Assembly: GCA_947176505.1 (NCBI GenBank) | Contig: CAMWQW010000006.1 | Span: 1 to 64,000 of the forward strand | Direction of reading: 5' to 3' | DNA length: 64,000 nt | From: an uncultured Lachnospiraceae bacterium | GTDB lineage: Bacteria; Bacillota; Clostridia; Lachnospirales; Lachnospiraceae | Shown: positions 45,148-64,000 of the stretch, one piece after another | Layout: each line of letters begins with the position of its first letter | How positions within the stretch are numbered: position 1 is the first letter of the stretch | Made by a program: the position numbers and the translations under genes | Notes under the pieces: model-generated | Database searches by the model: none | Seen by the model: only the letters and a program-made list of their open reading frames with translations | Told to the model about the DNA's origin: nothing

Positions 45148-45197
45148 GAGGTAAAAAATTAAAAATATATTAATAGATATATAGAATAAACACAAAA

Positions 45198-45233: not shown

Positions 45234-45262
45234 CTATTCATGATTTGTATATAGTACATATT

Positions 45263-45931: not shown

Positions 45932-46015
45932 CCCATTCCTTCTTACATATAATTAAATCAGCCAGATATCGTTTCTCTTCGGATTTTCATCATAACATAA
46001 AGGCAATAGATAGTA

Positions 46016-46051
46016 AAGAACCTCCGACCGTAAATCAGAGGCTCTTTCTAC
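46016..46051 (-). repeat. copy 1 of the 36-bp direct repeat, 45 nt downstream of the 1811-aa gene stop (operon-end hairpin; weaker U-tract)
   Basis: Identical 36-mer to 45198-45233. Confidence 0.6.
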
Positions 46052-46095
46052 TTATTTAATAGTATTTCAATTTCACTGATTGCAAAGACAGTCCA

Positions 46096-49000
46096 TCACT
46101 CGAGCAGGAACAATCTGGCACGATTCAACGATACCGTTCCAAATCCATCTATCTTGTACGTCTTTCCGTTTCTGATAAACTCAGACTCTACGAGAACAAA
46201 GATTCCCGCATTGTTGGTCTTGTCATCCGTAAGGCTCCTAAGTGAAACCACCGGTGCTTTAATCCGGTATACTTTACCCGGAAGTAAACCTATCTGGTCA
46301 GGATTCTGCGGGTCAGCCGCTGTCACAGGTACAAGCTTATTATCTGTAACCGTCCAGATTTCCGAACCGAACGGCGTCGCTTTAACAGTCTTGTCACCGA
46401 TGACAAACTCCTGCGTTCCGGCATCATCCTCATAATAGAAGCTGACCGTCACATTCTTGTTTGCTCCGATATTGCTATCTGCAAACTTAAAGTATACATC
46501 CACGGTATTGTCCAGAATTCCCTCGGTGTCATCGTCCGCCGTGTCTCTCCACTCCTGATCAAAGGGAACGGCAATGCTCTTCATCGGTGCGGAATTCTGC
46601 GCAAATCCGGACACAATAGCGACGTCCGAACCGTGTACGCCCGCACTGTACGCTGCCATAAGCGCATTGACAAAGAACTTACATTCGTCAACTCCCATTG
46701 CATTAGCAGCCACCTCACCTTCGCCGTATATGTATGGATATTCCGACTGCGCCAAATAGACCACATTGCCCTTACTGTAGCAATAATAGTTGTTCCGGGC
46801 GTCTTTTGGTGAAATACCGTATGCCGTATCTCTATTTCCGCCAAAGGTAAGCCATGTTGTTACATAAGCTTCTGTATACTCGCTCTTTAAGTTATTCTCA
46901 AAATTCAGCAGATACTCGGAAGCTCGCAGTCCTGTTCCGTTCTCAGCCATTTTCTCCGCAAAGGCAAAAGAATTGCCCGTCATCTCATACGGATAGTAAA
47001 GGATACTTCCTTCATTAATTTTATCCGCCCTTATTCCCGCACGCCGAGGTTCGTACATGCCCGCATTCAAACCTGCATATCTATGATACTGATTTGCCGC
47101 TCCCAAGCTGACAAAAGTTCTTCCTGAAGACCAGCCTAAACTCTCCGTCGCAAGTCCCGCGCTGTTGCCGCTCTTATTCTGACTGCATACGAGCAGACTC
47201 CTGCCCTCATTGATGTAATCGGCAAACGCCACACTATCCACAGTAACACCGTCATCCACAGTCAACACTACAACATCCCACAGATTCAGGTACTTAGGGT
47301 TCTTAGTTAAATTATCAGCTAATTCTTCAGGCGTAACCGTTTCAAATTCAAAAGCGAGATGTGAACTCGACTCCGCGTCTTTGAGTAATCTTGCCAGCAG
47401 AGAGTCATCCTTCTTCTTGTACATCGCTTCCAAATCAATATAATAGTCGCCTTTACTCTTTGTCACCTGCAGCACACGTATCTCTTCTTCATAAGAGCTG
47501 ACCAGTTCAAAATAGCCCTGCACGCTGGCTCGTCTGTATGGATTGCCACTATCCGTTACTTCTAACTTCCAAGGAATGATACCCGGACCCATACCGTTAA
47601 TCGTGACATCAATGACGTTGCCTTCATTGACATAGGCGCCGAATTCTTCGCCAAGCTCCTCCTCCGTACCGAAGATACCGTCATAATTCATATCTGCATA
47701 TAAGTGCATGGTTGTATCGCCGAAATAATCTTCGCCTCTGTTATTCTTAATCTGAAAAGCAATCCTGCCATGGTATTCTTCATTTTCATCCAAGACAAGC
47801 CGCTGCACCATGCTCACTCCGGAACCGCTGTCCGCGTCCTCGTTCACCAACTCAATCCGCGGCTTGGAAGTCTTCATTCTAGCCATAAATCCGGCATTCG
47901 ACATCGTATCCGATACGGTAAAAATACTGTCCTTATATTCTTCAACGGAAACCGCAGCCAACAGGAAATTATACATCACCGTATCTTCGGCAACATACTT
48001 CGTATTAATCGTATCTCTTGACGCGCCGCGGGCTGTTGCATCCGTGAAAAAGTCATTTTCAACCACGATCGGATATCCTGCCCGAAGATACTCTAACAAA
48101 TCCATCATCTTCTGCGATGTAATATCGTTGCTGTCATAACGGCTGTCACCAGTTACATCACCTAAATGATATACTTTACCATTCAATGACTCATCATTAT
48201 AAACCGCTCTTCTTGGCTGTCTGTCACCCAGATTCAGATTCTGCCCGTCAAGACCGATAAATATCATATCATAAGCGCCGTTAACATCTTCCCACTCACC
48301 GTTAAATTCCACTACGGATTTCACGTCTGTAGAAATGCCAAACTGCTTCTTGCTGTATAGAATCTGTTTACCCGTCTTCATGGCATCTGTCTTCCAGACA
48401 AGCTTTGTGTTCCCTTTGCTGTCCTCCTCTGTATGCAAATCGGAGATGATGGCTCCTGAAGTAAGATCAATGTTCGCCGTAGGCTGCAATTCCAGAATCG
48501 TCAGGTCATCAAATTCTCCCATAATACCTACGGAAAAATTAATGATATACTGAATCGCTCTGGCTTTGCTGACCTCAAAGGAAATTTGGTCATACTCCGC
48601 CAACGTAGTATTTTCTGCTTCAATCGCTGCTAATACATCACTGAATCCGGCTTTTGCCTTGAAATCGTCAAAAAACGCCGCAAAGTCATCACTGACAAGC
48701 ATTTCGTCATTAATGATATATATATTTTGGTTTACATAATTGTATCCATTGTCATCCTTATCCGGATAATCATCAGCCTTTAGCGTCATTTCTATGTTAG
48801 CCATCAAATCCGTGCCCGTATTGATAGCCTCAAAATAACCTGCCAAATCACGCTTTAATAACGCCTGCGCCAATAACTGATAATTCGTTCCGGCATATTT
48901 GTCAGTATCTGTCTCCTCCGCAATCGCGTAATCTACAATAATCGGTGTCAGCTCATCAGCCGCGCGGCTTAAAATTGCACTAACTATCCCCTCTCCCATG

Positions 49001-51516
49001 TCATTCGCGTCACCTAAAGGCGAATCGCCTTCAACATGCTGAATATAGCTGACCGATAATGACGGATTAAGAAACATATTCTGTCCGCTTTCCAGATAGA
49101 TTAAATCTGCCGCATTCACCATATCGGATGTCACTTCATCGGCTCTCACTGTCTGTACTTCAATCTGAAAAGCACTGTTCGCATTATCTCCGCCTGCAAG
49201 CGAACTGAATACATACTGCTTCAACCAGTTATTGGTTGTCTGACATCTGAAATAAACCGGCGCATTATAGACTCCTATCACCAAGTCGCTGTCTTTGCCT
49301 GTCTCAGCCAATTTGTAGTTACCTAAGCCGGGACCGACGTAGATAAATGTCGAATCAGGTGTCAATGTGGTGCTAAACAGACTGATTCCGTCTTCCGTCT
49401 CCGCCATATCTTCATTCAACATATAATCAGTAGACATGATATCATCTGCCCCGGCAAGTTCAGCCAGCTCATCGTCTGTCATCCGCTCAAACGAAAGCAC
49501 ATAGTACATCGTACCGCTCTCTTCGGAAGGCTCCTCTGTCTGAAGTGTATCATCCGTCGATGGCGTATTTGTATCACCTGTCGATGGCGCATTTGTGTCA
49601 TCCGTCGATGGCGTATTTGTGTCATCTGTCGATGGTGCATTTGTGTCATCTGTCGGTGGTGTGCTCGTATCATCCGTTGATGGTGTATTTATATCGGGTG
49701 TTGGCTGTTCTGGTGTCTGCGGCGGTTGTTCTGATGTTGATGTATCATCATCGGGTGTCTCCATATCAGAATCCGTTGGTGTACCTGCCACTAATCTTCT
49801 CCACTCACCTGCAAACACTGTGTTCTTGCTTAGGTCCAACAAAACTGCATCAGACATCACGCCGACGGAACTCGTCTCCGGTGCTGGTTGTGTTGGATCC
49901 GACTGTTCCGGCTGTTCTGGTGTTGGCGGCTGTTCTGGTGTTGGCGGTTGCTCTGGTGTTTCTGTACCGCTTCCCGGATTTTGCCCATCCCCCGGATTTG
50001 CAGGATCAATATCCGGAATAATCGGATTTATATCTGGCTGCTCCGTCGTACCATTATTGTCATTGTTATCATTGTTATCATTATTGTTATTATCATTACT
50101 ACTGTTATTATTATTGCTGTCATTGCTCGAATTGTCTACCCAGTCCTTAAAAACCTCACCGACCGTTCCCTGATAAACGTATCTGTCATCACTTTCATCA
50201 TATGTATAGATATCAAGCTCGTCAGAATAACCATTCGGTCCATTCATTGCATTGATTTCACTACTCACGGAAGCCTTATATGCAGGAGTGCCTTCCGGCA
50301 TGTTAGCATATTCTTCCAATGTTATCGCGTAAAATTTACCATTATCTTCATTATAAAAATAGACGAATCTTCCCAACGCTCCCGGGTTTTTCAAGGTTGA
50401 GCTTTTCTGTCCGCTGGACCAGACGAAATCATATCCTGCCTTGTCTTCTCCATCAACATATTTAAGGTAGGTGCCGCGGAAAATCCCGTCCGCCATATCA
50501 GCTTTATTGTTGCCGGATGTAATCTGATAAGTATCGTCTACCGTCACTTCCTGATTCGGAAACAACAGAGTCCAGCCATCCGCCTCCGCAACATTATGTA
50601 CTCCAAGATAAGCTTCTTTATACTGAATTCCCGGAAATGATGTAAATGAGGACTCCGGCACTAACAAGTTGAGAAAATCTTCTCTGCTCGCATAATGACG
50701 GAAAACCGGATTGCTCTTATATGCCTCTGCCAAATCATCCGCAAACGGAGCTTTTCCGCCTGCCAGATACCCCATTGAACCCGTAGTAAAAGAAAACCTT
50801 GTAGGGCTTGTATCCCCTGAACCTGTCGTACCGCCCGAACCAGCCGGCGCGTCGCAATACACTTCAGATGGAACAATATCCAGTATCTTATACGGATTAT
50901 CTTCTCCATGGTCTTCTACAATCTTGCCGATTCCCGCAAAAGATTCTTTCGCCATGGCTTCCGCCGGACGTAGATGTTGTACAACAGGATAAACTACTAT
51001 CGTCACCGCAAGAAGCATTGCGACACCGGACGCCGCCTTCTTCCACTTTTTTCTCTTTGAACCGAGAATAGGCTTCTCGTTGGTACTCTCAAGCATATAC
51101 TCGGGAATCTCGCCTTTTTTAATCTGTTCAATCTCTTTTTCTTTGGCAAGCGCTTCCCAATCCAGCTCCCCGGGATTAATTTTCCGGTGCTTTATGTGCG
51201 AAATAATCTGTGCTCTGGAAGCGTCCGCGCTCTTGAGCGATACAGATTCGTTCGCCGCCATATCAGATTCTTGCAATAAATCTGGTTTCTCCGGAGTATC
51301 AGACAACTTCGTATAATCGGACTCATTGAGGGTATCAGACGTTTTAGGAGCAGCAGCCTTCTCTGCCCCTTCATCATCTGCACGTTTTCTGCCCTTGTAT
51401 CTCAAGATACCAAAAACTCCCGTCGCCACTGCTGCAATCGAAGCGATTACAATAAGAACAATGTTTCTATTTTGTTTTTTCTTATTCCTTTTTATGCCTC
51501 TTCTCTTCTTTTTCAT
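46096..51516 (-). CDS. giant membrane-anchored protein of unknown function (about 1806 aa) with PT-rich and N/D-rich low-complexity linkers
   Basis: Continuous ORF. Start MKKKRRGIKRNKKK 5 codons inside the track's TTG start. Hydrophobic segments IVLIVIASIAAVATGVFGIL and AASGVAMLLAVTIVVYPVV. Linker runs NNNNSSNDNNNNDNNDNNDNN, PEQPPTPEQPPTPEQPEQ and (T/S)DDTN(A/T)PS x6. Recurring D-hhhh-xx-G-Q-N motifs (DMIFIGLDGQNLNLG, DLIYLESGQNMFLNPS, DVVVLTVDDGVTVDS). Confidence 0.6.
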   Translation of the reverse strand: MKKKRRGIKRNKKKQNRNIVLIVIASIAAVATGVFGILRYKGRKRADDEGAEKAAAPKTSDTLNESDYTKLSDTPEKPDLLQESDMAANESVSLKSADASRAQIISHIKHRKINPGELDWEALAKEKEIEQIKKGEIPEYMLESTNEKPILGSKRKKWKKAASGVAMLLAVTIVVYPVVQHLRPAEAMAKESFAGIGKIVEDHGEDNPYKILDIVPSEVYCDAPAGSGGTTGSGDTSPTRFSFTTGSMGYLAGGKAPFADDLAEAYKSNPVFRHYASREDFLNLLVPESSFTSFPGIQYKEAYLGVHNVAEADGWTLLFPNQEVTVDDTYQITSGNNKADMADGIFRGTYLKYVDGEDKAGYDFVWSSGQKSSTLKNPGALGRFVYFYNEDNGKFYAITLEEYANMPEGTPAYKASVSSEINAMNGPNGYSDELDIYTYDESDDRYVYQGTVGEVFKDWVDNSSNDSNNNNSSNDNNNNDNNDNNDNNGTTEQPDINPIIPDIDPANPGDGQNPGSGTETPEQPPTPEQPPTPEQPEQSDPTQPAPETSSVGVMSDAVLLDLSKNTVFAGEWRRLVAGTPTDSDMETPDDDTSTSEQPPQTPEQPTPDINTPSTDDTSTPPTDDTNAPSTDDTNTPSTDDTNAPSTGDTNTPSTDDTLQTEEPSEESGTMYYVLSFERMTDDELAELAGADDIMSTDYMLNEDMAETEDGISLFSTTLTPDSTFIYVGPGLGNYKLAETGKDSDLVIGVYNAPVYFRCQTTNNWLKQYVFSSLAGGDNANSAFQIEVQTVRADEVTSDMVNAADLIYLESGQNMFLNPSLSVSYIQHVEGDSPLGDANDMGEGIVSAILSRAADELTPIIVDYAIAEETDTDKYAGTNYQLLAQALLKRDLAGYFEAINTGTDLMANIEMTLKADDYPDKDDNGYNYVNQNIYIINDEMLVSDDFAAFFDDFKAKAGFSDVLAAIEAENTTLAEYDQISFEVSKARAIQYIINFSVGIMGEFDDLTILELQPTANIDLTSGAIISDLHTEEDSKGNTKLVWKTDAMKTGKQILYSKKQFGISTDVKSVVEFNGEWEDVNGAYDMIFIGLDGQNLNLGDRQPRRAVYNDESLNGKVYHLGDVTGDSRYDSNDITSQKMMDLLEYLRAGYPIVVENDFFTDATARGASRDTINTKYVAEDTVMYNFLLAAVSVEEYKDSIFTVSDTMSNAGFMARMKTSKPRIELVNEDADSGSGVSMVQRLVLDENEEYHGRIAFQIKNNRGEDYFGDTTMHLYADMNYDGIFGTEEELGEEFGAYVNEGNVIDVTINGMGPGIIPWKLEVTDSGNPYRRASVQGYFELVSSYEEEIRVLQVTKSKGDYYIDLEAMYKKKDDSLLARLLKDAESSSHLAFEFETVTPEELADNLTKNPKYLNLWDVVVLTVDDGVTVDSVAFADYINEGRSLLVCSQNKSGNSAGLATESLGWSSGRTFVSLGAANQYHRYAGLNAGMYEPRRAGIRADKINEGSILYYPYEMTGNSFAFAEKMAENGTGLRASEYLLNFENNLKSEYTEAYVTTWLTFGGNRDTAYGISPKDARNNYYCYSKGNVVYLAQSEYPYIYGEGEVAANAMGVDECKFFVNALMAAYSAGVHGSDVAIVSGFAQNSAPMKSIAVPFDQEWRDTADDDTEGILDNTVDVYFKFADSNIGANKNVTVSFYYEDDAGTQEFVIGDKTVKATPFGSEIWTVTDNKLVPVTAADPQNPDQIGLLPGKVYRIKAPVVSLRSLTDDKTNNAGIFVLVESEFIRNGKTYKIDGFGTVSLNRARLFLLE
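49545..49700 (-). repeat. 24-bp in-frame tandem repeats (about 6 copies) encoding (T/S)DDTN(A/T)PS
   Basis: tcatccgtcgatggcgtatttgtg-type units reiterated with point variants. Confidence 0.8.
49890..50140 (-). repeat. 18-bp repeats encoding PEQPPT x3, and AAT/GAT-rich microsatellite-like repeats encoding the N/D/S run
   Basis: ggctgttctggtgttggc x3 at about 49900-49955; attgttatcattgttatcattattgttattatc at about 50040-50140. Confidence 0.75.
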
Positions 51517-51546
51517 AATTAATCGCCCCAATACTTGCTTAAAAGA

Positions 51547-54500: not shown

Positions 54501-54771
54501 TCTCATCAGGCTCACTGCTGAACTCGGAATCTTTCAGAACAAGTTCTGTCCCGTTGCCATAACTTATACTGTCCGTCGTATCTATAATCACGTCAGAAAT
54601 CTGATTTAAAGCGAGCTGCGCCTCCTGTTGTAACATGATGTCGGTGTTAGCCGATGTATAACTTCTGGATCCTACCACAATGAAACCACAGACTGCCAGC
54701 GTCACAATTGCTAGTATTGCTATCGCTATGATCAATTCCACCAATGTAAAACCTTTCTGATTTTTTCTCAT
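51547..54771 (-). CDS. giant prepilin-type protein (1074 aa) with an N-terminal class III signal and N-methylation motif
   Basis: MRKNQKG|FTLVELIIAIAILAIVTLAV is the classic prepilin cleavage and N-methyl motif (G-1, F+1, E+5). It is followed by about 1000 aa with Big_2-like stretches (LSCASTTIKAGSTVTVNGSAV) and many W/Y/N/G-rich beta-type segments. Confidence 0.6.
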   Translation of the reverse strand: MRKNQKGFTLVELIIAIAILAIVTLAVCGFIVVGSRSYTSANTDIMLQQEAQLALNQISDVIIDTTDSISYGNGTELVLKDSEFSSEPDEKILVVVNKKGSNNDNDSYRFEWSKDTQTIYFNTSDTVIDDTNPEPVFNDTNRAILAQHVKELHIDISQFEENRVVMISMTFQNGNKEYTTSNNVTVRNRIALNKIDIEPMKKANEFTITTVRDIVLEPGDSFNLADKTQVDTNSDDQAVKWELVDTGTTTSSVSADGQLTIGTNETRKSFLVRVSRVNEEYANQNDKVAKTVQVNVKRVNSVDLSCASTTIKAGSTVTVNGSAVGYMLGRSCEAHSCLTDDETKDHDLAATRWRIVRGPAEIVTSDTGEAEVKIKSTAKKGEEIEIEATSDLSLRKSYGAVTGTLILRVTEGDNGAKFIGSELKFGTDNDPGIFDYMRTSLKTDHSRYVFCVRVREAGTVGCQNDYVMVYFTEGANERFSPDAFGLDHRKSYEIYFQVLDPRPKGSRTEASKEEIKTEYLNKCDDNGKYIGTMFDADEYYYAVLNQPSVAVKINGVTYPNDEKESYEHFSFLSTPNNNPLGGMIEIADAGAINILREAVLNNIRFTVYKEDENGRWKRVYGYAHDTEEYADNRNGTTRIGALPISPDRDGNYNDKGNNTGQNRFGKIVFQPGSNPTVTNLTNSNAQEMQEACGMYHIVPGFVYANNPDIRAGAYTGDNVIYKNVPGDYDTYYYKQWDCVINLRIDMGLNMQLPNVNGEERWTNFPVPSDRAFPFDLRSDTKQEIIYNFTSYSKDGQWRGTIDNATVMCEYLGQDKYRITLSSMEINGRQIITHIYGKYEASMGQLEWTRVGLEETKIENIQTNLEFTKDNKQYETYFPTPSDADFPIGAFDNNSTLNNWQLISFSKDGSSDALIEKCIVKCSKSGSAYTIEIIREILTNNPRKKIVYNYGTFSWDGAKWNRTKAGSNTGVDTAIWGTRIGFTYNGSQCMLEAPLPSESGFPNISGSYSESVTEYFFATDTYGENAQNSWGGIKKEYTYDASTDTYTLKLVNGYTSGVEYGTWTCTSNGTQWTKQ

Positions 54772-54875
54772 AGTACTGTGATTCCTTTCTGTCTACTCTG
54801 CCGCCATCTTCATTTTCAACCACACGCTGCACCGGATCATATTTCCGACTGTCTGCAAGCCACCTCTTTCCTATA

Positions 54876-55418: not shown

Positions 55419-55439
55419 CTGACTATATCCTCTCCATTA

Positions 55440-58130
55440 CTATTTCTTAATCCAGTTCTCGTACCTTACAATCTCTGAATAATCAATATTGAGATTGCCG
55501 GCTTCATCTACGTCTGCCTCCTCATAACCGCTCTTAATCATACCAGAACCGTTACAAAGAATATTCGCCGGAACGTTAACGTCTCCCGCCACTTCAGATT
55601 GTGCCTGAAGAACGGCATACACGCCCTCACCGTCTTTCTTGATTGTCGCATTATTCGAGACGGTAATCTTACCGCTTGCGATAATCAGACCTTGGAAATC
55701 TTTGGTGACTTCCACATCTCCTATGGCAACCACAAGTCTTAACTTGGAATCTGTCACTCTATATACGTTGCCCGGCTCTTTCTTGCTGTCTACCAATACT
55801 GCCTTCAAAATATTTGCGCCTTCACCGGTCGTAAACTCCACCTTGCCATGATTGTCGTCAAGATAATCCTGCAATCCTTCCGTACTCTCAGGATCCGTCG
55901 GATTGGTATTAAGCTTAACCAGATTCTCAAACACGTTCTCTTCCGTGCCCGGATCCTCTTCCAACAGGTTTTTCATCAGATTCTCATAACTTAAGATAAT
56001 CTCATCCGGCTCTTTTAACTCATTCTCACTGACAATCGTTTCCACATTGTCAGATACTTCTTCATAATCCCCTGCTTCTCCTGCCGGCGGATTCTCCTCG
56101 TCATCACCATCGCCTTCCGACGGATTATTCTCAACGCTTGATAAAAGTTTGACAATATTTTGCCCTTCCGGAGATGTCATGATTGCATCACCGTTTCCTG
56201 CATCTGTGGCGGATACCATACTGTTACCTACCACCGTATATCCCTGCACGTTGCCTTTCAGTCTGATACCACCCGAAACATACTGATTAAAGTAATTGTC
56301 CAGACTTGCTTTATTGCTGTTGACATTATAATACTGCGTGAAATATTTCGCAGCATTAACACTGTCCATCACCAGATACAGGTACACCTGCTCTTTTTCC
56401 GGCTTATAAAGGAATCTGACACCCGAACCGTTCGCAACTGCCTTTTGGTTCAATGCCGTTATGACAGCTACCGGATTCGTCAAATCTACAGCGCCCAAAT
56501 CAGTCGCCTTAATATCCGGTATTCCATAACTGCTCAGCTTCCCGCCGCCTAACTTTGTCACTTCCCTGCTGGCATCCACAATTCTGAAAACTTCATCATC
56601 ATCATCGGCTCCGCCCTCCGGCGTTGATGTACCATCCCCTGCTCCCGGTGTCTGATAATCGGCAAGACTCTTTAACATTTCACTCCATGTCTCAAAAGAT
56701 ACCGGATTCTGTCCGACCACAGGTGTTCCGTTCAAAGTACCCACACACTCCGGCGGAACAAGATAGGCAATCTGATTACTCTTGACGGAAATAGACTCTC
56801 CCATCAGCACATGAGGCATCCCGTTGTCTTTCTCATCATCCTTAGCTAAGCTGACGTATGCCCTTCCCGCAAGCTGCAAAGTAGTAAGCCCTGTCAAATC
56901 CACAGACGTATTCTTTCCGTTAATCACAATAGCGCTGCTCGTGTTCGCCGGATTAACCCTCTGCAGTTCTTTGACAACCTTGCCGTCACTGTCTAACACA
57001 ACATGCCCGTCGTCATCAAGCTTCGGCGCTTCCTCTTCATGAGTCGTCTCATTCGTATTGCCGTAGCCGTAATACTGTCCTGCCAGCGACACGTTACTGC
57101 CCTTGCCGGACAAGATTAAATCATTTGCTATATACATTCTTCCGGAAACATCTAAATGCCCGCCATTTAACGCCAGTCCGTTCGCATAGACATTCGTCCG
57201 GAATCCTTTACTTCCCTGCGTTACATTTCTTATGATTAATTCTGCATCCTGATTGACCATGCTCGTAAAGATAGGATCGTTACCGACAACGATATCCCCG
57301 CCCGAAATAACATAGGACGCGTCCTCAATCAGCACATGACTGTTTCTGGCAATCTGGATACCGCCTTTGCTGTCTTCATCGACTCCGCCGTAAATATTGC
57401 CGTTTATTGCAATCGTATTGGCGTCCATCTCAATTCCCTCATCGCCGATTAATACATACGGATACAATCTGTCAATGGTTCCAGCCTGTGTAAAACGCAG
57501 CTTCGGCACATCAATAGCTATATCCGTATTGATGATGGACAGATAATCATTGGTATCGTAATACTCGATACATATATTCTGAAGTACCATGCTTCCGTAG
57601 CCGTTTACGGCATTTGCGGCTTTAAATTCAGCTACGGCGTTATCCCACGTATCGTTCACGATATATCCGTCACCATTCGGGTCGCTCTCATCCCACCATT
57701 CAGAATCCACGAAACCTTTCAGCATATCCTTGTCGTAACGGTTCGGAGACCCTGTCGGAGTTGTTCCGAACCTGCTCTCAACTGCCGCAATATACGCCGT
57801 AATGAAATAGCTCTCACGGTTCGCATCCGTCCCCAGCGCATCCCAATTGCTCACCACTTCCTGATACGCCTCATTGATTGCTTTCGAGACCTCACGCTTC
57901 ACACCAGCCTCAATCTGCTCCACCACCGTCTCTGCGGAATAAAAGCTGTTCTTCACCTTCAAGTCATTGATTTTAATACGATAATTAAGATAAGCCGCCC
58001 ACAGGATCGTAGTCGCTAGTACGCCTATTAATGCCATGGCGATAATCACGATTACAATCGCCGAACCTCTGTCGTCCCTCTTATTCAGTTTTTCTCGAAG
58101 CAGATTTTTGCTCTTGCACAGCTTTTTCAT
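55440..58130 (-). CDS. large PilX-N-like pilus protein (896 aa)
   Basis: The N-terminus DDRGSAIVIVIIAMALIGVLATTILWAAY resembles the PilX N-terminal motif (G-S, no Glu+5); a long G/N/D-rich beta region follows. Confidence 0.5.
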   Translation of the reverse strand: MKKLCKSKNLLREKLNKRDDRGSAIVIVIIAMALIGVLATTILWAAYLNYRIKINDLKVKNSFYSAETVVEQIEAGVKREVSKAINEAYQEVVSNWDALGTDANRESYFITAYIAAVESRFGTTPTGSPNRYDKDMLKGFVDSEWWDESDPNGDGYIVNDTWDNAVAEFKAANAVNGYGSMVLQNICIEYYDTNDYLSIINTDIAIDVPKLRFTQAGTIDRLYPYVLIGDEGIEMDANTIAINGNIYGGVDEDSKGGIQIARNSHVLIEDASYVISGGDIVVGNDPIFTSMVNQDAELIIRNVTQGSKGFRTNVYANGLALNGGHLDVSGRMYIANDLILSGKGSNVSLAGQYYGYGNTNETTHEEEAPKLDDDGHVVLDSDGKVVKELQRVNPANTSSAIVINGKNTSVDLTGLTTLQLAGRAYVSLAKDDEKDNGMPHVLMGESISVKSNQIAYLVPPECVGTLNGTPVVGQNPVSFETWSEMLKSLADYQTPGAGDGTSTPEGGADDDDEVFRIVDASREVTKLGGGKLSSYGIPDIKATDLGAVDLTNPVAVITALNQKAVANGSGVRFLYKPEKEQVYLYLVMDSVNAAKYFTQYYNVNSNKASLDNYFNQYVSGGIRLKGNVQGYTVVGNSMVSATDAGNGDAIMTSPEGQNIVKLLSSVENNPSEGDGDDEENPPAGEAGDYEEVSDNVETIVSENELKEPDEIILSYENLMKNLLEEDPGTEENVFENLVKLNTNPTDPESTEGLQDYLDDNHGKVEFTTGEGANILKAVLVDSKKEPGNVYRVTDSKLRLVVAIGDVEVTKDFQGLIIASGKITVSNNATIKKDGEGVYAVLQAQSEVAGDVNVPANILCNGSGMIKSGYEEADVDEAGNLNIDYSEIVRYENWIKK

Positions 58131-58244
58131 AGGCTATTTCGTTCCTTTATAAGAATCCCTTACACGTTATCTGTTTTCATCGGTTCCCGCCAGTCTACAT
58201 CCGAACTCTGTATCCAACATACGCACTCTTTCTTCTACGCCCTG

Positions 58245-59726
58245 TCACTGATTCATATTGGTAATGGTGGCAAGTCTGTGCACTTCGTCATTGTCTTCAA
58301 AGTTGCTTTCCGTAAAATGCTTCGCCGCTCCGGTCTGATAAACTGTAATTTCTACATCATAAATAATATTTGTTACTTTATCACTTGTCGTATTTCCCGA
58401 AAAAGTACACTGGTTCACATTGTGGGAAATATTCGCATTATATGTATAAAGCACTCCGCTGATTAAGTCTCTCTCTCCCGTAGCCTGATTTTTAATCATA
58501 TTGGTATCCGCATTGGTTCTGAAAGTCAGATTGCCATCCATCGAAGTATCCGCCCCAACATCGACAAGCGCGCGGTAGGCGGTCTCCTTCGCCCATAGCT
58601 CGGCATCCGTCAAATCAGGTGCAATCACATTCGCATCCACATCGACTACCGACCGTATCTGCTTCGCCAGCGTGATGCTTTTCAATAACGGTTGTTCTTT
58701 ATCGCACAGTTTTGCAGCATCCTTAATCTTAAATTGTATGTTGTCTACTAAGCCTGATTTGTAAATAGGGTAGTAAAAAAGATAAAAATTACCGCTTGAA
58801 AAAGTGCGGGTGACATCGACTACCTTGCCGCCCTCCGAACCGTCATATCCGTTGCTTGTGTAAGTATAGGTAGTCTCGCCGTATGTGTAACTACAGTCAT
58901 ATGTAAAATTAATTGTAGCTTTACACCGATCATTGCCGCCGTCTTCCAGTACAATTTCTATCGTCCTCTTTGTGACAATATCTTCTAATTTCAAATCGTC
59001 CCAATCATCCGGAAGCGTTCCGCCAACTGCCGCAATATCATCTGCAATCTGCAGCTTTACATCTTTTAAGACGGCTTCGCTTAATTTCTTGCTTTCATGA
59101 TAACTGCTGTCCGTCTTCATTGCATCCTCGTCACCACCGCCGTTTATTTCAGCTACGCTTCCGATTTCGGCGTAGAACTTGCCGTTAAACTCTCTGTCAT
59201 GTACACCCCCGGGGTTATTGACTGTCCCGCTGGCATCTATCTTTTTTGAATTAGCACCGTAAGTAGATGCGTCCAATCTAATCAGCGCATCGTACTCCGC
59301 GCCCTGCATCTTGAGATTCTCAATGCCGAAATAATATATTTCGTCACCCTCTACATGTCCGTCCATGTCTTCCGTCAAGTCTCTGACACCGCCCTGAATC
59401 ATGCTGCTATTCACAATATAGAAGCCATCCGACGGGTAGTGGAAAACGTCTCCGCTTACACCTTCCGGCGGTTCAAACTGCGCACTCACTTCCTCCAGCG
59501 TATATGCCTTGAGTCCCTCCATGATATCCTGTGCTACCGTAGTCGCACGCAGTGTCTGTCTGGACTTCACATTGATTCTTGTGGATGTGACAAACATATG
59601 TAACAGCGGTGCAACGATAATCGCAAGAATCGTCACCGCAATCAACAGCTCAACCAAGGAAAAACCTGCGTTTGGGTTCTTTCTATATGCTTTATTCAGT
59701 TGCCCTTTTTGCGTACTACTATTCAT
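58245..59726 (-). CDS. minor pilin, PilV/PilW-like (493 aa)
   Basis: 20-aa leader, then NAG|FSLVELLIAVTILAIIVAPLL prepilin motif. Confidence 0.6.
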   Translation of the reverse strand: MNSSTQKGQLNKAYRKNPNAGFSLVELLIAVTILAIIVAPLLHMFVTSTRINVKSRQTLRATTVAQDIMEGLKAYTLEEVSAQFEPPEGVSGDVFHYPSDGFYIVNSSMIQGGVRDLTEDMDGHVEGDEIYYFGIENLKMQGAEYDALIRLDASTYGANSKKIDASGTVNNPGGVHDREFNGKFYAEIGSVAEINGGGDEDAMKTDSSYHESKKLSEAVLKDVKLQIADDIAAVGGTLPDDWDDLKLEDIVTKRTIEIVLEDGGNDRCKATINFTYDCSYTYGETTYTYTSNGYDGSEGGKVVDVTRTFSSGNFYLFYYPIYKSGLVDNIQFKIKDAAKLCDKEQPLLKSITLAKQIRSVVDVDANVIAPDLTDAELWAKETAYRALVDVGADTSMDGNLTFRTNADTNMIKNQATGERDLISGVLYTYNANISHNVNQCTFSGNTTSDKVTNIIYDVEITVYQTGAAKHFTESNFEDNDEVHRLATITNMNQ

Positions 59727-59812
59727 AAATTTCTCCGCCGCCTCGCTGTCTCTCTGCGCTTACTCTGCTTACACCTGATCGGTATTCCTCTTTCTCCTCT
59801 TCCGCCACTACT

Positions 59813-60655
59813 TTAATCTTCCTCGTCCTCGTCTTCTTCATCGCCGTCTTCGGCTGCATCATTATTCTCTATATCTTCCAGTCCGCGCTCACCGTAGAGT
59901 TCTATGGAGCCAAAGATATTATCCGTGCCTAACAGAACAGAGGAAAAGTTCGGTACCACATATTCCTTGCCCGGCTGTCCCGGAATACAGTACATGTCAA
60001 CACTGGTCGTGCCCGTGAGAAGTCCCGTAGACTCGTCATATGATACCGTTAGGTTATCGATACTCATTCTGTTATCCTGAACACTAATATTTTTAATACC
60101 TCTTTTTAATCCCTCATAGGACACAAGGTAATTAAACGTCACATTACGCGCCATCAGTATAGACGGCATGTTCTCTGTACCCAGTCCGTTGCCGCTTGGG
60201 TCCGCCGCAGAAGCTGAAACATCGTCGCTGATGCCCTCCTGTGCCTCATACTCCTCTATCTCATCAATCTCGTAAGTATGACTCACATCTTCTTCCTCGC
60301 TCTGCAGAACAACCGGCTCGCATGCACTGATACTGATACTGCTGATTAACATCGGAGAAATCAATTCCTGACTGATGGCGAGCAGAATACTGTCTTCCTC
60401 TCTGACATCTATCGGAAATTCCTTGAAAATCGCATCCATTTCCCGATTCATGCTCTCCGTCTCCGCAATATAAGAATCTTTATTCTCCATCTTGGAACTC
60501 AGGTCATTAATTCTTGCCTGAAGCTGCACATTCTCCTGTTCCAAAGCGTCAGCTTTCTCCATCGTCGGCTGAAATACAAAGAAATAGGAGCAGACTGCCG
60601 CCAAAATCCCAATAAAGCCTACAAGGAGTAATATATCTCTTTTAGAAACTTTCAT
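59813..60655 (-). CDS. pilO: type IV pilus assembly protein PilO-like
   Basis: 280 aa; single N-terminal TM then a coiled coil (ADALEQENVQLQARINDLSSKMEN); acidic C-terminal tail. Confidence 0.55.
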   Translation of the reverse strand: MKVSKRDILLLVGFIGILAAVCSYFFVFQPTMEKADALEQENVQLQARINDLSSKMENKDSYIAETESMNREMDAIFKEFPIDVREEDSILLAISQELISPMLISSISISACEPVVLQSEEEDVSHTYEIDEIEEYEAQEGISDDVSASAADPSGNGLGTENMPSILMARNVTFNYLVSYEGLKRGIKNISVQDNRMSIDNLTVSYDESTGLLTGTTSVDMYCIPGQPGKEYVVPNFSSVLLGTDNIFGSIELYGERGLEDIENNDAAEDGDEEDEDEED

Positions 60656-60667
60656 GCTCTCATCCCC

Positions 60668-62308
60668 CTACTCTTCCGTGTTTGATGCACTGTCTGCATC
60701 CGCCTCATCATCCGTATCACTCAAGGAAGGCGCATGTACATCCCTGTAGAGTGCCGCCACTGAGAAGTTCACGGAGATTGTTCCTGCTTCCTCGTCAATC
60801 TCCTCCACTACGGAATTGACCGTCACGCTGGTTGGAATCAAGCTGTCAAAAGAACGGAGCTGTTCGACGGCTGCCGCCGCTTCACTCTTGCTGCTCACAT
60901 CCATATTAATCGCTACACCGTCTATCGTACTTGTAAAAGAAACTACATGGACATCACTGGGCATTTTGCTCTCAAGCTCTTCCAGAAATTCTACAAGTTC
61001 TTCGTTCCTGTTTTCCGTCTGTCCATACATCGCCGTCACTAAATTATAAGATGCCAACGTCGCTGTATATTCATTATAAATAGGAATAATCGCTTCCAGA
61101 TCGGAATTCTGCGCTTTTAACTCCATATTCTGCTTCTCTAATCCCATATACCGCAGAATGGAAACTGCCGCCAGCGCAATTGCTATGGCAAGTCCCAAGC
61201 CCAAAATCGCATAAGCAATCGGCGCAGGATTGATTCCGCCTTTTCCGCCTGCTGCCTTGTCTTTACCTTTTGCCTTCTCTGCGTCTTTCTTGAATCCTAG
61301 CGGAGCCGCAGCCGCACCTACGCTGGCAACATATTCACCATAATACTGTGTTCTGAAACTTTTCTCCAGATTCCATCCCGGTATCTGACGCAATACCTCG
61401 ACCGGAAGGTTCAAATCTCTCGCAAGCAGTTCCGCCAAACCTTTAATATTGGCGCCAAGACCTGTAATATAGACAACCTCGACAGATGCATCCGAGTTAT
61501 GAGATGTATAGTAATCCACAACCCTGCTGATGCCTGATGTGAGCGGCGCAATCGCTTCTACCATCTCGGGTGAACCGATACAGTCATTCATCGACACCAC
61601 TTCCATTGCCGCCTGAACTGAATCAGCTTCAGCCCATCTCTTGGAATCTATGACTGTTTGTATCGCTTCCTCCGCACCGTATGCCACATTTCTAACAAAT
61701 GCAAGTCTGGCATCATGAATCGCCATCACAAGCGAAGAACGTTCATCAATCTTAATCACAAGGCTCGTGCCCTGTGCATGTTTATCTTTTGCCACCTGAA
61801 ATACACTGTTGCCGGCGTAATCGATTGCGGCAAGTTCCAGCTTCAATGCTTTTGCCAAATCATAATATCCGTTAAGGAGCGCACTCGGCGCCGCCAATAC
61901 AAGCAGTTTATACTGCTGCGTACCTTTTGGATCACCCAAAACTCCCAAAATGCTGTATGCAAGCTGATACTGACTTAAATCTACAGGAAAATAATCGGAG
62001 GCATTGGCATTCACCACATCCGCAATACGATTCTCCTTCACATACGGAATCGTGACCTCGCGACTCGCAATCCTTCCTGAAGTGATGGTAAACACCACCT
62101 GTTTTGTCTTAATCTTTCTCTCTGTAAGCGCGGTAGTTAACGTCTCTATGTATTCCGGCGTCGGCGTAAGCACACCGTCATTGATAACCCCTTCCGCAGT
62201 CGGTATCGTAAAAGATCTGTATACCTTATGTGTTTTAGCCTTATAATCAACCTCGCAGACCCTTGTCAACGAGTATCCGATCTCTATACTGATCGCTTTA
62301 GCAGCCAT
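60668..62308 (-). CDS. pilMN: PilM-PilN fusion protein
   Basis: 546 aa; N-terminal actin-like PilM (ISIEIGYSLTRVCEV...), a TM segment (IAYAILGLGLAIAIALAAVSIL), and a C-terminal PilN-like region. Confidence 0.7.
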   Translation of the reverse strand: MAAKAISIEIGYSLTRVCEVDYKAKTHKVYRSFTIPTAEGVINDGVLTPTPEYIETLTTALTERKIKTKQVVFTITSGRIASREVTIPYVKENRIADVVNANASDYFPVDLSQYQLAYSILGVLGDPKGTQQYKLLVLAAPSALLNGYYDLAKALKLELAAIDYAGNSVFQVAKDKHAQGTSLVIKIDERSSLVMAIHDARLAFVRNVAYGAEEAIQTVIDSKRWAEADSVQAAMEVVSMNDCIGSPEMVEAIAPLTSGISRVVDYYTSHNSDASVEVVYITGLGANIKGLAELLARDLNLPVEVLRQIPGWNLEKSFRTQYYGEYVASVGAAAAPLGFKKDAEKAKGKDKAAGGKGGINPAPIAYAILGLGLAIAIALAAVSILRYMGLEKQNMELKAQNSDLEAIIPIYNEYTATLASYNLVTAMYGQTENRNEELVEFLEELESKMPSDVHVVSFTSTIDGVAINMDVSSKSEAAAAVEQLRSFDSLIPTSVTVNSVVEEIDEEAGTISVNFSVAALYRDVHAPSLSDTDDEADADSASNTEE

Positions 62309-62486
62309 TAATCATAGTCTCCTTTCGACTTCCCCAGTGTATTTATATTGAAAAAAACAGATAGGCTTGCCCCGCACATGCTTTTCTTATTTTCTTCCGT
62401 AAAGTTTGTTTCTGTACGCATTTGCACTTTTATTAAGCCACATATGTTATTGTTGAACGCATTATATTCTTACATACAAGTCGGTC

Positions 62487-63239
62487 TCAGAACTGTCCCA
62501 AATACCATGTAAGCATCTGATTGCCCCACATCGCTGCAATAAAAACGCCTGCTGAAAGATATGGTCCCATTGCAAGCACATGGTCTTCATTACTCACCTT
62601 CATGCGAATCACATGAATGAATGCACCTAAAATGCAGCCTAATAAAAATGCAATAATAATCAGTTTCCATCCAAGAAATAATCCGCAGGCTGCCATCAGC
62701 TTCACATCACCACCACCGATTGCCCGTCCTTTGGAGGCATAATATAAAATTGCAAGTACCGCACTGACGGCTAAGAAGCCAATCAGGTAGCTAAGGATAT
62801 GATGATAGTCCAATGCTGCCCGAATCAGCCCCAGCGCCAGTATAAACAGATTGATTCCAAATGGAATCTCATAAGTTCTAAAATCAATCACGCTCAGTAC
62901 AAGGAGCGCAGACACAAGTAAACAGTAGAGTAGGGAGTCTACGTTTACCCCATGAATACATACGATCATCACGTATAAGATTCCGTTCACTGCCTCAATC
63001 AGAGGATACTGGACGGAGAGCTTTGCCCCACAAAAGCGGCATTTTCCTCGCAAAAACAAATAACTGAACAGTGGAAACATATCATACCACTTCAGTTGTT
63101 TGCCACACGACATACAGTGCGACCTTGTCTTCACGATATCTTCATGCTCCGGAATACGGTAAACGCAAACGTTTAAGAAGCTGCCGATTACGATTCCGAA
63201 GAAAAATATAATGATGTAAAATATAATGTCTACGAGCAT
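62487..63239 (-). CDS. pilD: prepilin peptidase (A24 family) PilD
   Basis: 250 aa; N-terminal Cys-rich zinc site (CMSCGKQLKWYD...CRFCGAKL) and polytopic TM. Confidence 0.9.
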   Translation of the reverse strand: MLVDIIFYIIIFFFGIVIGSFLNVCVYRIPEHEDIVKTRSHCMSCGKQLKWYDMFPLFSYLFLRGKCRFCGAKLSVQYPLIEAVNGILYVMIVCIHGVNVDSLLYCLLVSALLVLSVIDFRTYEIPFGINLFILALGLIRAALDYHHILSYLIGFLAVSAVLAILYYASKGRAIGGGDVKLMAACGLFLGWKLIIIAFLLGCILGAFIHVIRMKVSNEDHVLAMGPYLSAGVFIAAMWGNQMLTWYLGQF

Positions 63240-63279
63240 GATTTATGTCCTTTGTAGGGGGAATTTGTTAAAGATTATC

Positions 63280-63342
63280 AAAATGGCGAAACGGAAGACC
63301 GTGCCTTATAGCATTGGAATTGCATGTAGGGGCACGCTTCCG
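63280..63342 (-). terminator. imperfect hairpin plus interrupted U-tract between the pilin gene and pilD (partial terminator or attenuator)
   Basis: cggaagCGTGCC...GGCACGgtcttccg inverted repeat, followed on the minus strand by UUUCGCCAUUUUG. Confidence 0.35.
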
Positions 63343-63420
63343 TTCGTCTAAATTATGTCACACTTATGTAGGTTTGGTGTGAGTGGTTGATGTTGGCTAG
63401 GCTAACATCAGGTTCCTGTA

Positions 63421-63879
63421 TTAATTTGTAGCTCCAAGCATTCTATTGCTAAACAGATCAGCCGATGCCTCATTATCCGCACTATACTGGAAATTAAGAT
63501 TACCATTATTAACAGTCCATGTAATAGTATAGTCTTCCCAGTTTGTTCTGCTCTGTCTTCTTGTATGCAATACACCACTAGCATCTAACAGACCTGCATC
63601 AGCCAAAGCTGCTGCTGCAAAACTACCAGTAGCAGGTGTCTGGTCAGCTGTACCAATTGTTATTGACCCAGCAGCTGGTGCTACCGTCGAATCAGGATCA
63701 GCTGCATAAATCTGTAATGCTGATACAATTTCAGCCGCATTCTGCAAATCTGTCGAATTACGGGATCTCTCCACATACTTTAAGTACTGAGGTGCAAGTA
63801 CTACAAGCAAGATAGCCATAATCGCAATAACGATGATCAACTCAACAAGGGAAAAACCTTTGTTATTCATTTTTTTCAT
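63421..63879 (-). CDS. pilA: type IV (major) pilin
   Basis: MKKMNNKG|FSLVELIIVIAIMAILLVVLAPQYLKYVERSRN prepilin motif; 152 aa; AAGGAGAAAG RBS. Start moved from the track's 63957. Confidence 0.75.
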   Translation of the reverse strand: MKKMNNKGFSLVELIIVIAIMAILLVVLAPQYLKYVERSRNSTDLQNAAEIVSALQIYAADPDSTVAPAAGSITIGTADQTPATGSFAAAALADAGLLDASGVLHTRRQSRTNWEDYTITWTVNNGNLNFQYSADNEASADLFSNRMLGATN

Positions 63880-64000
63880 TTCTCTTTCTCCTTTTCCGCT
63901 TAAATTTATTATGATTGTTCCGGATATTCCCTGATACCCGTATCTTAAACACGGCAACTCCCCTACACACTGCCATGTTCAATTCTTATATACCGCCAGC

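Follow-up and report, generated by a model that had tools for sequence, protein, structure and literature searches.

Between positions 46096 and 64000 of the window, by which we mean the whole analysed stretch of 64,000 nucleotides from an uncultured Lachnospiraceae bacterium, a gene cluster on the minus strand probably belongs to a complete type IVa pilus operon of the monoderm (Clostridial) type, of which it makes up the distal two-thirds. The reading we favour, and regard as the probable one, is that the pilus is of the monoderm type IVa class and bears an enlarged, adhesive complex at its tip, on which a giant protein would dock by its C-terminal peptide. It builds on a distal module of five genes in strictly conserved order; these encode proteins assigned as I-type (493 aa), K-type (896 aa), H-type (180 aa) and J-type (1074 aa) prepilins, followed by a DUF5057 giant (1811 aa). 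A more specific proposal can be put forward only tentatively: the DUF5057 giants (1,300-2,200 aa) may be the missing monoderm counterpart of PilC/PilY1/MshQ, with the C-terminal peptide docking on the tapirin-like K-type pilin.

Architecture of the operon

All nine ORFs named in a preceding sequence-only reading of this DNA were recovered at the coordinates given there, co-directional and on the minus strand (nine of nine; Table 1). That reading had recognised a Clostridial-type type IV pilus locus, which the Pfam and NCBIfam matches support. It had also noted that PilB, PilT and PilC are not in view. This is true inside the window but is an edge artefact, because the window edge falls before the motor genes. 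As it had proposed to do, we inspected the DNA past base 64000, where the same contig carries on the same strand pilT, comM, dprA, pilB, a 318-aa ORF, and pilC; these genes were read from an identical contig (GCA_029059645.1, JAIDVO010000026.1). PilB (563 aa) consists of MshEN and T2SSE domains (T2SSE E=3e-139), PilC (404 aa) matches T2SSF (E=5e-66), and the PilT-like protein (351 aa) matches T2SSE, the latter call being from precomputed Pfam only. The extension ATPase, the platform protein and the retraction ATPase are thus all three encoded on the contig, and PilC or PilB adjoins the module in relatives too.

Table 1. Features of the pilus locus; coordinates refer to the window, and an arrow marks the processing site.
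Feature	Coordinates	Strand	Evidence
Major-pilin candidate	63421..63957	-	mechanical ORF 178 aa; N_methyl E=1.6e-8
Prepilin peptidase PilD, 250 aa	62487..63239	-	A24_N_bact E=4e-35, Peptidase_A24 E=1e-20
PilM-PilN fusion, 546 aa	60668..62308	-	PilM_2 residues 8-316 E=1.7e-15; TIGR01175 pilM E=3e-23
PilO/GspM-like bitopic protein, 280 aa	59813..60655	-	N-terminal TM segment, coiled coil, position
I-type (PilV/GspI/ComGE-like) enlarged minor pilin, 493 aa	58245..59726	-	N_methyl; site G↓FSLVELLIA
K-type (GspK/PilK/PilX-like, no Glu5) giant minor pilin-like protein, 896 aa	55440..58130	-	
K-type extreme C-terminal peptide ...EIVRYENWIKK-COOH	55443..55475	-	motif conserved in family
H-type (GspH/FimU-like) minor pilin, 180 aa	54876..55418	-	N_methyl; site G↓FSIVELIIVIA
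J-type (GspJ/ComGF-like) modular giant pilin, 1074 aa	51547..54771	-	N_methyl, sub-threshold ComGF/GspJ
Giant DUF5057 protein	46096..51531	-	mechanical ORF 1811 aa; DUF5057 E=5.7e-23, residues 1135-1412
Low-complexity Pro/Thr/Asp/Asn linker of the giant protein	49546..50120	-	tandem repeats (TRF)
Extreme C-terminal peptide of the giant protein, ...VSLNRARLFLLE-COOH, candidate docking 'plug'	46099..46134	-	conserved ending
Terminator-like hairpin, operon end	46015..46047	-	15-bp stem, 5 G-C pairs

For the major-pilin candidate, the likely CDS is 63421-63879 (152 aa, start MKKMNNKG↓FSLVELIIVIA), and the NCBI record also has 152 aa; sub-threshold matches point to GspG, PilA, and ComGC. Class III prepilins and a dedicated A24 peptidase are encoded together, as N_methyl was found in four proteins (the pilin and the 493-, 180- and 1074-aa proteins) and Peptidase_A24 in the 250-aa protein. 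In the 546-aa fusion, an actin-like PilM domain precedes a TM segment, and the periplasmic-type C-terminal part behind it would, to judge by architecture alone (topology and position), be PilN. A PilO-like gene follows PilMN in all loci compared. The 280-aa protein itself gave no Pfam match, and one orthologue of it matches T2SSM weakly.

Conservation of the five-gene distal module

The order I-K-H-J-DUF5057 is kept, with similar sizes, in about 45 Lachnospiraceae genome loci and also in loci at 23-31% identity. It recurs in all five distant metagenomic representatives, which were located by exact-protein look-up and each of which lies in a differing chromosomal neighbourhood. This arrangement is far beyond chance. 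The comparison of gene order across related genomes, which had been suggested as a check, shows the module kept in about 45 loci plus 5/5 distant ones. Among the genome loci, the families span 415-553 aa (I), 716-951 aa (K), 171-214 aa (H), and 732-1297 aa (J); J-type orthologues in more distant loci are as short as 197-259 aa. Since the same order and sizes recur across loci, large sizes are normal for this clade. With 493, 896, and 1074 aa, three of the prepilin-type proteins are oversized in comparison with textbook minor pilins, just as the sequence-only reading had emphasised. The reverse notion, that these are ordinary orthologues of normal size for the clade, holds in part: the sizes are the clade norm, and the four proteins probably correspond to the I/K/H/J set that is universal among minor pilins. 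In size and domain content, however, they are unusual with respect to described systems, and the terminal giant is no PilY1 homologue.

A class III signal had been claimed for all four proteins, and the corresponding motifs are conserved over about 50 loci, the 896-aa member being non-canonical and of GspK/PilK type. The 493-, 180- and 1074-aa families have kept Glu5; only the 896-aa family lacks it, and does so in all loci. Its prepilin-like N-terminus, RG↓SAIVIVIIAMA, is conserved and has I, V or M at position +5, never Glu. Four co-encoded prepilins of which exactly one is devoid of Glu5 constitute the pattern of core minor pilins. That the 493-, 180- and 1074-aa proteins are I-, H- and J-type core minor pilins is suggested by matches to the N-terminal ~60 residues, with scores below the curated cut-offs; the 896-aa protein would be the K-type one. 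In the I-type family, PilV and ComGE were matched in 30/30 and GspI in 24/30 members, sub-threshold and within the N-terminal ~60 aa only; the H-type protein gave a sub-threshold GspH match (E=4e-4); and in the J-type family N_methyl was found in all 31 members, accompanied by ComGF (30/31) and GspJ (7/31), both sub-threshold throughout. For the K-type, Pfam gave no match in the 896-aa protein nor among the 31 members of its family; PilX_N matched faintly on one orthologue from a distant locus, and a fold search with the 896-aa model listed no GspK among the best 60 matches. Profile searches of the PDB with the 1074-, 896- and 493-aa families retrieved the alpha-1 pilin helix or noise alone, and in these searches the globular parts of the large pilins could not be related by sequence to any solved minor pilin. 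Our literature search found nothing on the five-gene module or on minor pilins of Lachnospiraceae.

Comparison with described pilus systems

With the T4aP clusters of Clostridia and other monoderms (C. difficile, the S. sanguinis pil locus), the locus has in common a pilin, PilD, PilB, PilC, PilT, PilM-N, PilO, and minor pilins, encoded in a single co-directional cluster. The order in C. difficile is reportedly pilA1-pilB1-pilC1-pilMN-pilO-pilV-pilU-pilK. In contrast to those clusters, there are four minor pilins here, three of which are larger than usual by a factor of 2.5 to 6, and a conserved giant non-pilin gene follows them. Large 'modular' minor pilins of more than 50 kDa have already been described in S. 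sanguinis (PMC6916266, PMC8179133), and the term modular type IV pilin is used here in the sense of Raynaud et al. 2021 (PMC8179133). Two pilins of the locus are larger than the most extreme case of 860 aa in an InterPro survey (PMC8179133). The minor-pilin order is I-K-H-J instead of the canonical H-I-J-K. As in the PilHIJK/FimU-PilVWX/GspHIJK complexes, four prepilins occur together, one of which lacks Glu5; here, however, the similarity is sub-threshold and confined to the alpha-1 region, and the sizes are far larger.

The large pilins as putative adhesins

The expectation that these pilins are adhesin-like is supported by a tapirin-like beta-helix in the 896-aa protein and by a hypervariable distal part with sporadic Ig-like and discoidin modules in the 1074-aa family. 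Both have a pilin module plus an extra non-pilin module, as in modular pilins. In the J-type protein, the N-terminal ~200 aa form the conserved pilin module and the distal part is hypervariable; column conservation is 0.75 at the N-terminus and has dropped to about 0.2 by the C-terminus. J-type homologues contain sporadic Big_2, Big_5 and F5/8 type C domains, and orthologue lengths range from 197 to 1297 aa.

The predicted model of the 896-aa protein is made up of a long alpha-1 helix and a tapirin-like beta-helix, to which a C-terminal beta domain and the conserved tail are added. By fold matching, this beta-helix resembles that of the cellulose-binding tapirins of Caldicellulosiruptor (PDB 4wa0, 6n2b, 6n2c); the tapirin chains were not retrieved by the 896-aa profile search of the PDB at E<=1. 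Tapirins are proteins of ~70 kDa whose C-terminal domain is the beta-helix, whereas in the 896-aa protein it lies mid-sequence, roughly at residues 180-480 according to the profile of secondary structure and confidence along the model, and is followed by ~400 residues and the conserved tail. The tail motif [LV][IV]x[YF]xNWxK[KEN]-COOH occurs in nearly all loci, including the five distant ones; in the AF2 monomer model the tail is undocked and has a pLDDT <50. An N-terminal pilin-like helix lacking Glu5 is common to TadG/CpaL, GspK, and the 896-aa protein, as is a large insertion in the middle of the sequence, although no homology was detected between the former two and the latter. For TadG/CpaL and GspK, the conserved extreme C-terminus has been proposed to complete the pilin-domain sheet (PMC13533445).

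The DUF5057 giant

In every informative locus, a DUF5057 gene directly follows the J-type gene. The NCBI call for the protein is 1806 aa with the start MKKKRRG, and homologues carry the label 'DUF5057 domain-containing protein'. The DUF5057 (PF16480) match reaches 82.4 bits against a gathering cut-off of 27.9. Homologues were collected with a C-terminal fragment as query, a first query having been swamped by low-complexity words (16 matches); the family comprises about 1,400 clusters at 50% identity, and we found nothing on DUF5057 in the literature. The C-terminal 1,080 aa of the giant protein are highly conserved. Fold matches of the predicted model are weak, namely ThuA-like or flavodoxin-like and Ig-like, with no beta-propeller among them. 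A PDB profile search with the family produced noise only and no informative structure match, and no catalytic family was matched by Pfam, NCBIfam or PDB profile searches. The linker contains a 24-nt unit repeated 6.2 times, an 18-nt unit repeated 2.9 times, and 15-nt units (TRF).

The giant has no class III motif and is a non-pilin that is probably secreted; members of its family carry a Sec-type signal. A conserved [AV]-x-A↓KESF site of signal-peptidase-I type follows its hydrophobic segment, which makes doubtful the earlier description of the 1811-aa protein as membrane-anchored. The giant of the window and many homologues from several subclades possess an extra N-terminal TM segment and an extension of ~120 aa, and this complicates the secretion model.

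The ending of type ...VSLNRARLFLLE is kept in all core loci, and members at 23-31% identity end in ...LF[DN]LD. Nearly all members end in ...R/K-x-x-L-F-x-L-D/E-COOH, and the C-terminal dodecapeptide of the giant is almost invariant. Of 119 full-length sequences that represent distant clusters of the family (about 1,400 at 50% identity), 78 possess the strict motif; most of the others differ at the last residue only, and in every case the chain stops at a fixed point of the motif. The last nine residues have a pLDDT <50 in the monomer model. The combination of a best-conserved element, a fixed end and low confidence suggests a partner-dependent peptide.

A proposed model for the pilus tip

On these grounds, we propose the following model. 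PilD would process all four prepilin-type proteins. The four minor pilins may assemble in the membrane into a priming complex that becomes the pilus cap, like PilHIJK/GspHIJK, and the pilus tip would then display the added modules, which would act as adhesins whose targets are probably polysaccharides or glycans. After export and cleavage by signal peptidase I, the giant protein would be held on the tip complex via its C-terminal peptide, the likely mode of docking being beta-strand addition beside the conserved C-terminal strand of the K-type protein.

The model is guided by a comparison with PilC/PilY1 and MshQ, of which we take the giant to be a putative functional analogue and not a homologue. 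Like these, it is a very large non-pilin with a Sec-type signal, its gene stands directly after the minor pilins, and it has an extreme C-terminal peptide. MshQ is a non-PilY1 protein of ~1200 aa encoded after mshDOP (PMC13533445). The C-terminal peptide of PilC/PilY1 docks on PilK by beta-strand addition, and the same is predicted for MshQ (PMC13533445; bioRxiv 10.64898/2026.09.18.752573). The PilC plug has low confidence in monomer models and lies antiparallel to the terminal PilK strand with which it pairs (bioRxiv 10.64898/2026.09.18.752573; PMC13533445); the tails of the giant and the K-type protein likewise have low confidence in monomer models. There are also differences. [quoted passage not shown] The tail sequence of the giant is conserved family-wide, whereas PilY1 plugs differ between systems. 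Monoderm T4aP have been described as being without a PilC/PilY1 partner (bioRxiv 10.64898/2026.09.18.752573).

What would tie the giant to the pilus tip in this model is synteny and motif conservation. The variants of the two C-terminal peptides follow phylogeny; covariation was set aside for this reason, as the test would not be independent. Alternatively, the 896-aa tail could complete the sheet by itself, as GspK and CpaL do by providing the final strand in cis, and the giant's tail would then have no part in it.

Lachnospiraceae are dominant fibre degraders of gut and rumen, and their pili are essentially unstudied. For the core minor pilins of monoderm T4aP, only a PilI-like structural homologue is stated by the field. 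The locus described here offers a widespread and strictly conserved alternative, i.e. a full I/K/H/J-like quartet with grafted adhesin modules plus a giant non-pilin partner whose C-terminal peptide is family-wide. If the docking model holds, the 'licensing' of tip complexes by beta-strand addition would reach Gram-positive pili, a function would be found for the DUF5057 family (about 1,400 clusters at 50% identity), and a simple peptide handle for cargo display on the pili of gut commensals would be at hand. Tapirin-type beta-helix adhesins would also be linked to pili as tip subunits, which would answer the open question in the literature of whether tapirins interact with the type IV pilus.

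Alternative explanations

The strongest competitor, which we nevertheless consider unlikely, is that the DUF5057 giant is anchored in the membrane and spans the wall, as a scaffold or conduit for the passage of the pilus through the thick peptidoglycan, the C-terminus being merely the last element of its own fold. A hydrophobic N-terminal segment (two in the window protein), a long Pro/Thr/Asp linker as is typical of wall-spanning regions, a conserved C-terminal part of 1,080 aa that is alpha/beta and ThuA-like rather than composed of variable adhesin domains, and the strict operon linkage expected of a machine part would all suit such a role. It is at odds with the conserved cleavage-type site [AV]xA↓KESF after the hydrophobic segment, with a gene position exactly like that of pilY1 and mshQ after the minor pilins (PMC13533445), and with a C-terminal peptide that is the best-conserved element in very distant members and combines a fixed end with low confidence in the monomer.

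It is less probable still that the pilus serves mainly for DNA uptake (competence) and that the large tip proteins bind DNA and not surfaces. Here, comM and dprA lie between pilT and pilB, and in many relatives they are found directly downstream of the giant gene. We did not accept this as strong evidence of competence: the pair belongs to an ancestral dprA-topA-codY-fla synteny (comM-dprA-topA-codY-flgB is the ancestral Firmicutes gene order), and in distant loci the pilus module stands in unrelated neighbourhoods that have neither comM nor dprA. The discoidin and Ig-like modules of J-type homologues also argue against DNA as the main target, although roles in competence and surface binding are compatible.

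In type IVb systems, a tip minor pilin recruits a secreted protein, and the giant could analogously be cargo that is exported or released by the pilus and not a stably displayed adhesin. This explanation, to which we assign a very low probability, would draw on the same synteny and C-terminal recognition peptide as the docking model, and the ThuA-like alpha/beta domains could be enzymatic. However, the known signals of T4bP cargo are N-terminal (bioRxiv 10.64898/2026.09.18.752573), and the giant has its own Sec-type signal and matches no catalytic family.

The idea of the sequence-only reading that a type IV filament variant works here without PilB/PilT ATPase or PilC platform had in its favour the lack of such genes in 46096-64000, and is refuted by PilT, PilB and PilC directly upstream on the same contig and strand.

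A c-di-GMP riboswitch is known at C. difficile pilA1; in the window and the upstream locus, Rfam detected neither such a riboswitch nor any other riboswitch or RNA family. At the other end of the operon, a terminator-like hairpin lies after the last gene (minus strand, 46047-46015), as had been noticed, and forms one copy of a 42-nt direct repeat.

Gene content and conservation of the module

The nine ORFs and the hairpin that the sequence-only reading had described are present in the window as stated. Searches with Pfam and NCBIfam gave the family matches listed (Table), and no Pfam match for the 896-aa or the 280-aa protein (PilO-like). That reading had also seen no ATPase or platform gene, which is an artefact of the window edge. 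Looking up the exact PilMN sequence returned the same contig as GCA_029059645.1 JAIDVO010000026.1 (447 kb, a Lachnospiraceae MAG by the annotation of a homologue; its locus is L001, and the L001 positions given here lie past the window end), where genes for a PilT-like protein, PilB and PilC lie upstream beyond base 64000 on the same strand; their presence refutes an ATPase-less filament. The cluster is followed downstream by topA, codY, flgB, flgC, fliF and the remainder of the fla/che operon. With the motor genes on one side and topA-codY-fla on the other, this is a full type IVa pilus gene cluster that has been inserted into the classical dprA-topA-codY-fla neighbourhood. The pilus has ordinary machinery and an unusual putative tip module, which consists of the 493-, 896-, 180- and 1074-aa proteins plus the 1811-aa DUF5057 giant.

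Features of the pilus cluster and its surroundings (window positions unless marked L001; "same", strand of the pilus genes; arrow, predicted processing site)
Feature	Position	Strand	Assignment	Size in relatives (aa)	Predicted processing site of family
351-aa protein	L001, upstream of pilin gene	same	T2SSE, PilT-like		
comM, dprA	L001:1000-3680	same			
PilB, 563 aa	L001	same	MshEN + T2SSE, E=3e-139		
318-aa ORF between pilB and pilC	L001:5767-6723	same	weak Transposase_31 (YhgA-like), E=6e-5		
PilC, 404 aa	L001	same	T2SSF, E=5e-66		
Nine consecutive ORFs	46096-63957	minus			
178-aa (probably 152-aa) ORF		minus	prepilin, N_methyl		
250-aa ORF		minus	A24 prepilin peptidase (PilD)		
546-aa ORF		minus	PilM domain fused to membrane + periplasmic-type tail (PilMN)		
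280-aa ORF		minus	PilO-like		
493-aa ORF		minus	N_methyl	415-553	G↓FSLVELLIA
896-aa ORF		minus		716-951	RG↓SAIVIVIIAMA; I/V/M at +5, never Glu
180-aa ORF		minus	N_methyl	171-214	G↓YSLVELIIV in most relatives; G↓FSIVELIIV in window
1074-aa ORF		minus	N_methyl	732-1297	G↓FTLVELIIA
1811-aa ORF		minus	DUF5057, PF16480, E=5.7e-23	1317-1961	
Terminator-like hairpin	46047-46015	minus	3' of last gene		
Classical Firmicutes block	1-45075	same			
topA	43000-45075	same			
codY	42056-42847	same			
flgB, flgC, fliF, fliG, fliI, fliK, flgE, fliY-like, flhA, cheA, FapA	after codY	same			
DUF6115 protein	6080-7441	same			
tsf	3254-4189	same			

A scan with the DUF5057 family, one genome per species, yielded 60 loci, nearly all from Lachnospiraceae, with MAGs of Butyrivibrio, Roseburia and Lachnobacterium represented; two of the 60 are from mouse isolates and one is from Clostridium transplantifaecale. 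When the window proteins were compared by BLASTP with all ORFs of these loci, the order PilMN-PilO-493-896-180-1074-DUF5057 recurred wherever the flank sufficed (about 45 loci); the module is retained even where the giant is only 23-31% identical. An exhaustive profile search expanded the giant family to 1,416 clusters at 50% identity, 650 of them with E<=1e-30 and most 1,300-2,200 aa long. In five of five distant representatives, PilD, PilM(N), PilO and four genes (416-546, 737-848, 169-221 and 197-1006 aa) precede the giant, and in three of the five the chromosomal context is unrelated to topA/codY. This argues that the linkage reflects a functional module, beyond mere conserved chromosome order. 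The large sizes of the prepilin-type proteins, noted in the sequence-only reading, are conserved among relatives rather than peculiar to this cluster. The size-variable member is the fourth pilin, which in C. transplantifaecale has just 259 aa.

Behind the giant gene at the distant metagenomic locus L065 (16182-21012) lie a gene for a YfhO-family membrane protein (a possible glycosyltransferase) and three more small prepilin genes (151-233 aa), suggesting that this locus has a second set of pilins and that pilins may be glycosylated.

The four pilin-like proteins

In each of the four families Gly is retained at -1, and a hydrophobic stretch of about 20 residues comes after it. NCBIfam scans of whole families gave consistent but sub-threshold matches, confined to the N-terminus. 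The 493-aa family was matched by PilV and ComGE in 30/30 members and by GspI in 24/30, and for this reason appears to be I-type; the 1074-aa family, matched by ComGF (30/31) and GspJ (7/31), appears to be J-type. The 180-aa protein matched GspH. The absence of Glu5, as in the 896-aa family, is a hallmark of GspK/PilK/PilX-type subunits and is used so in PMC13533445; PilX_N matched one K-type orthologue faintly. Sequence profile searches of the PDB found no match beyond the alpha-1 helix.

In the 1074-aa family, the first ~200 residues are conserved, column identity falls to about 0.2 in the distal half, and Big_2, Big_5 or F5/8 type C (discoidin) domains occur in some homologues. Such a profile is the signature of a modular pilin (a concept described in PMC8179133) with a diversifying, putatively ligand-binding end.

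The 896-aa family comprises at least 686 members, every one annotated as hypothetical, and its C-terminus always reads ...(L/V)(I/V)x(Y/F)xNWxK(K/E/N)-COOH. An AlphaFold2 model built with 35 homologues (mean pLDDT 68; beta-rich core 80-95) has a 74-residue N-terminal helix, a beta-helix and a C-terminal beta domain modelled with good confidence (residues ~710-860), the final 35 residues being of low confidence. The beta-helix is tapirin-like. Tapirins are cellulose-binding surface proteins of ~70 kDa, whose genes come immediately behind pilO and a single pilin gene in the T4P locus of Caldicellulosiruptor; here, a modelled tapirin-like module lies within a protein that has a K-type prepilin N-terminus, at the equivalent operon position.

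The DUF5057 giant and a tip-docking proposal

The giant is a non-pilin protein. In most of its family, a single N-terminal hydrophobic segment comes after basic residues, and the conserved junction [AV]-x-A↓K-E-S-F behind it looks like a signal-peptidase-I-type site. In the window giant (N-terminal ~190 aa, 51000-51531) and many homologues, the family-wide signal-like segment is preceded by an additional basic N-terminus, a first TM segment and ~120 conserved residues (HRKxxPGELDWE...); positive charge on both flanks makes the topology of this first TM segment ambiguous. A Pro/Thr/Asp/Asn tandem-repeat linker comes next (49546-50120). Its DNA consists of 24-nt (x6.2), 18-nt (x2.9) and 15-nt units, which produce spurious long opposite-strand ORFs (49595-50173 and 49888-50400), and copy number is likely to vary between strains.

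The ~1,080-aa region after the linker is highly conserved and ends in ...VSLNRAQ(L/M)FLLE-COOH in every core locus, and in ...LF(D/N)LD-COOH in the most divergent ones. Among 119 full-length representatives from distant clusters, the giant always terminates at the same motif position; 78 satisfy the strict pattern [LIVMF]F.[LIVM][DE]$, and most others differ at the last residue alone. In monomer models, the tails of both the giant and the K-type protein are of low confidence.

The last 10-12 residues of PilC/PilY1 fasten it to the PilHIJK tip complex; disordered on their own, they add a beta-strand that runs antiparallel to PilK's terminal strand (PMC13533445; bioRxiv 10.64898/2026.09.18.752573, both 2026); in GspK and CpaL/TadG this strand is supplied in cis (same sources). 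The same docking is predicted for MshQ (~1,200 aa, gene after mshDOP), which lacks PilY1 homology (PMC13533445). Monoderm T4aP are stated to lack PilC/PilY1 (bioRxiv 10.64898/2026.09.18.752573). Here, too, a K-type protein is one of four minor pilins; as with PilC/PilY1 and MshQ, a predicted Sec-exported giant non-pilin is encoded right after them; and conserved terminal peptides are found on the K-type protein and the giant. The module thus matches the genetic and sequence logic of this docking mechanism, and on this match we propose a tip-capture sequence: PilD would process the four pilin-like proteins, these would prime and cap the pilus, exposing their added modules, and the giant would be captured at the tip via its C-terminal peptide.

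Modular pilins and tip-docked giants are already known concepts; in the literature searched, DUF5057 is unmentioned and the module undescribed. Once the supposed lack of an ATPase is set aside, there remain an I/K/H/J + DUF5057 module that is widespread and uncharacterised, a conserved peptide of the docking type and a structural connection to tapirins, which are relevant to pilus specialists and leave a specific, testable hypothesis on the tip module.

Rather than being captured at the tip, the giant could be an envelope-anchored machine part or a cargo. The pilus could also serve DNA uptake, as the adjacency of comM-dprA and a resemblance to ComZ would have it, but this adjacency is ancestral synteny and absent at distant loci.

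Chromosomal setting

Judged from the flagellar block and the pilus cluster, the organism is flagellated as well as piliated. The comM-dprA pair, here between pilT and pilB, lies directly 3' of the DUF5057 gene in many related genomes; the pilus cluster seems to be placed on one or the other side of it. The 318-aa ORF has a weak homologue (25% identity) in one relative's locus (L050); in another (L020), the interval from pilC to the pilin gene showed none.

A 42-nt direct repeat (45197-45238 and 46015-46056; copies 98% identical), one copy of which is the operon terminator hairpin, brackets a segment of 818 nt that lies between the giant gene and topA. Therein, a minus-strand ORF (45480-45788) weakly matches the C-terminal half of PIN (E=0.0013) and the N-terminal half apparently lies in another frame (45722-45931), so that it looks like a frameshifted PIN-domain toxin, adjoined by an 89-aa ORF (45263-45532). 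Here a toxin-antitoxin insertion may have duplicated the terminator and decayed.
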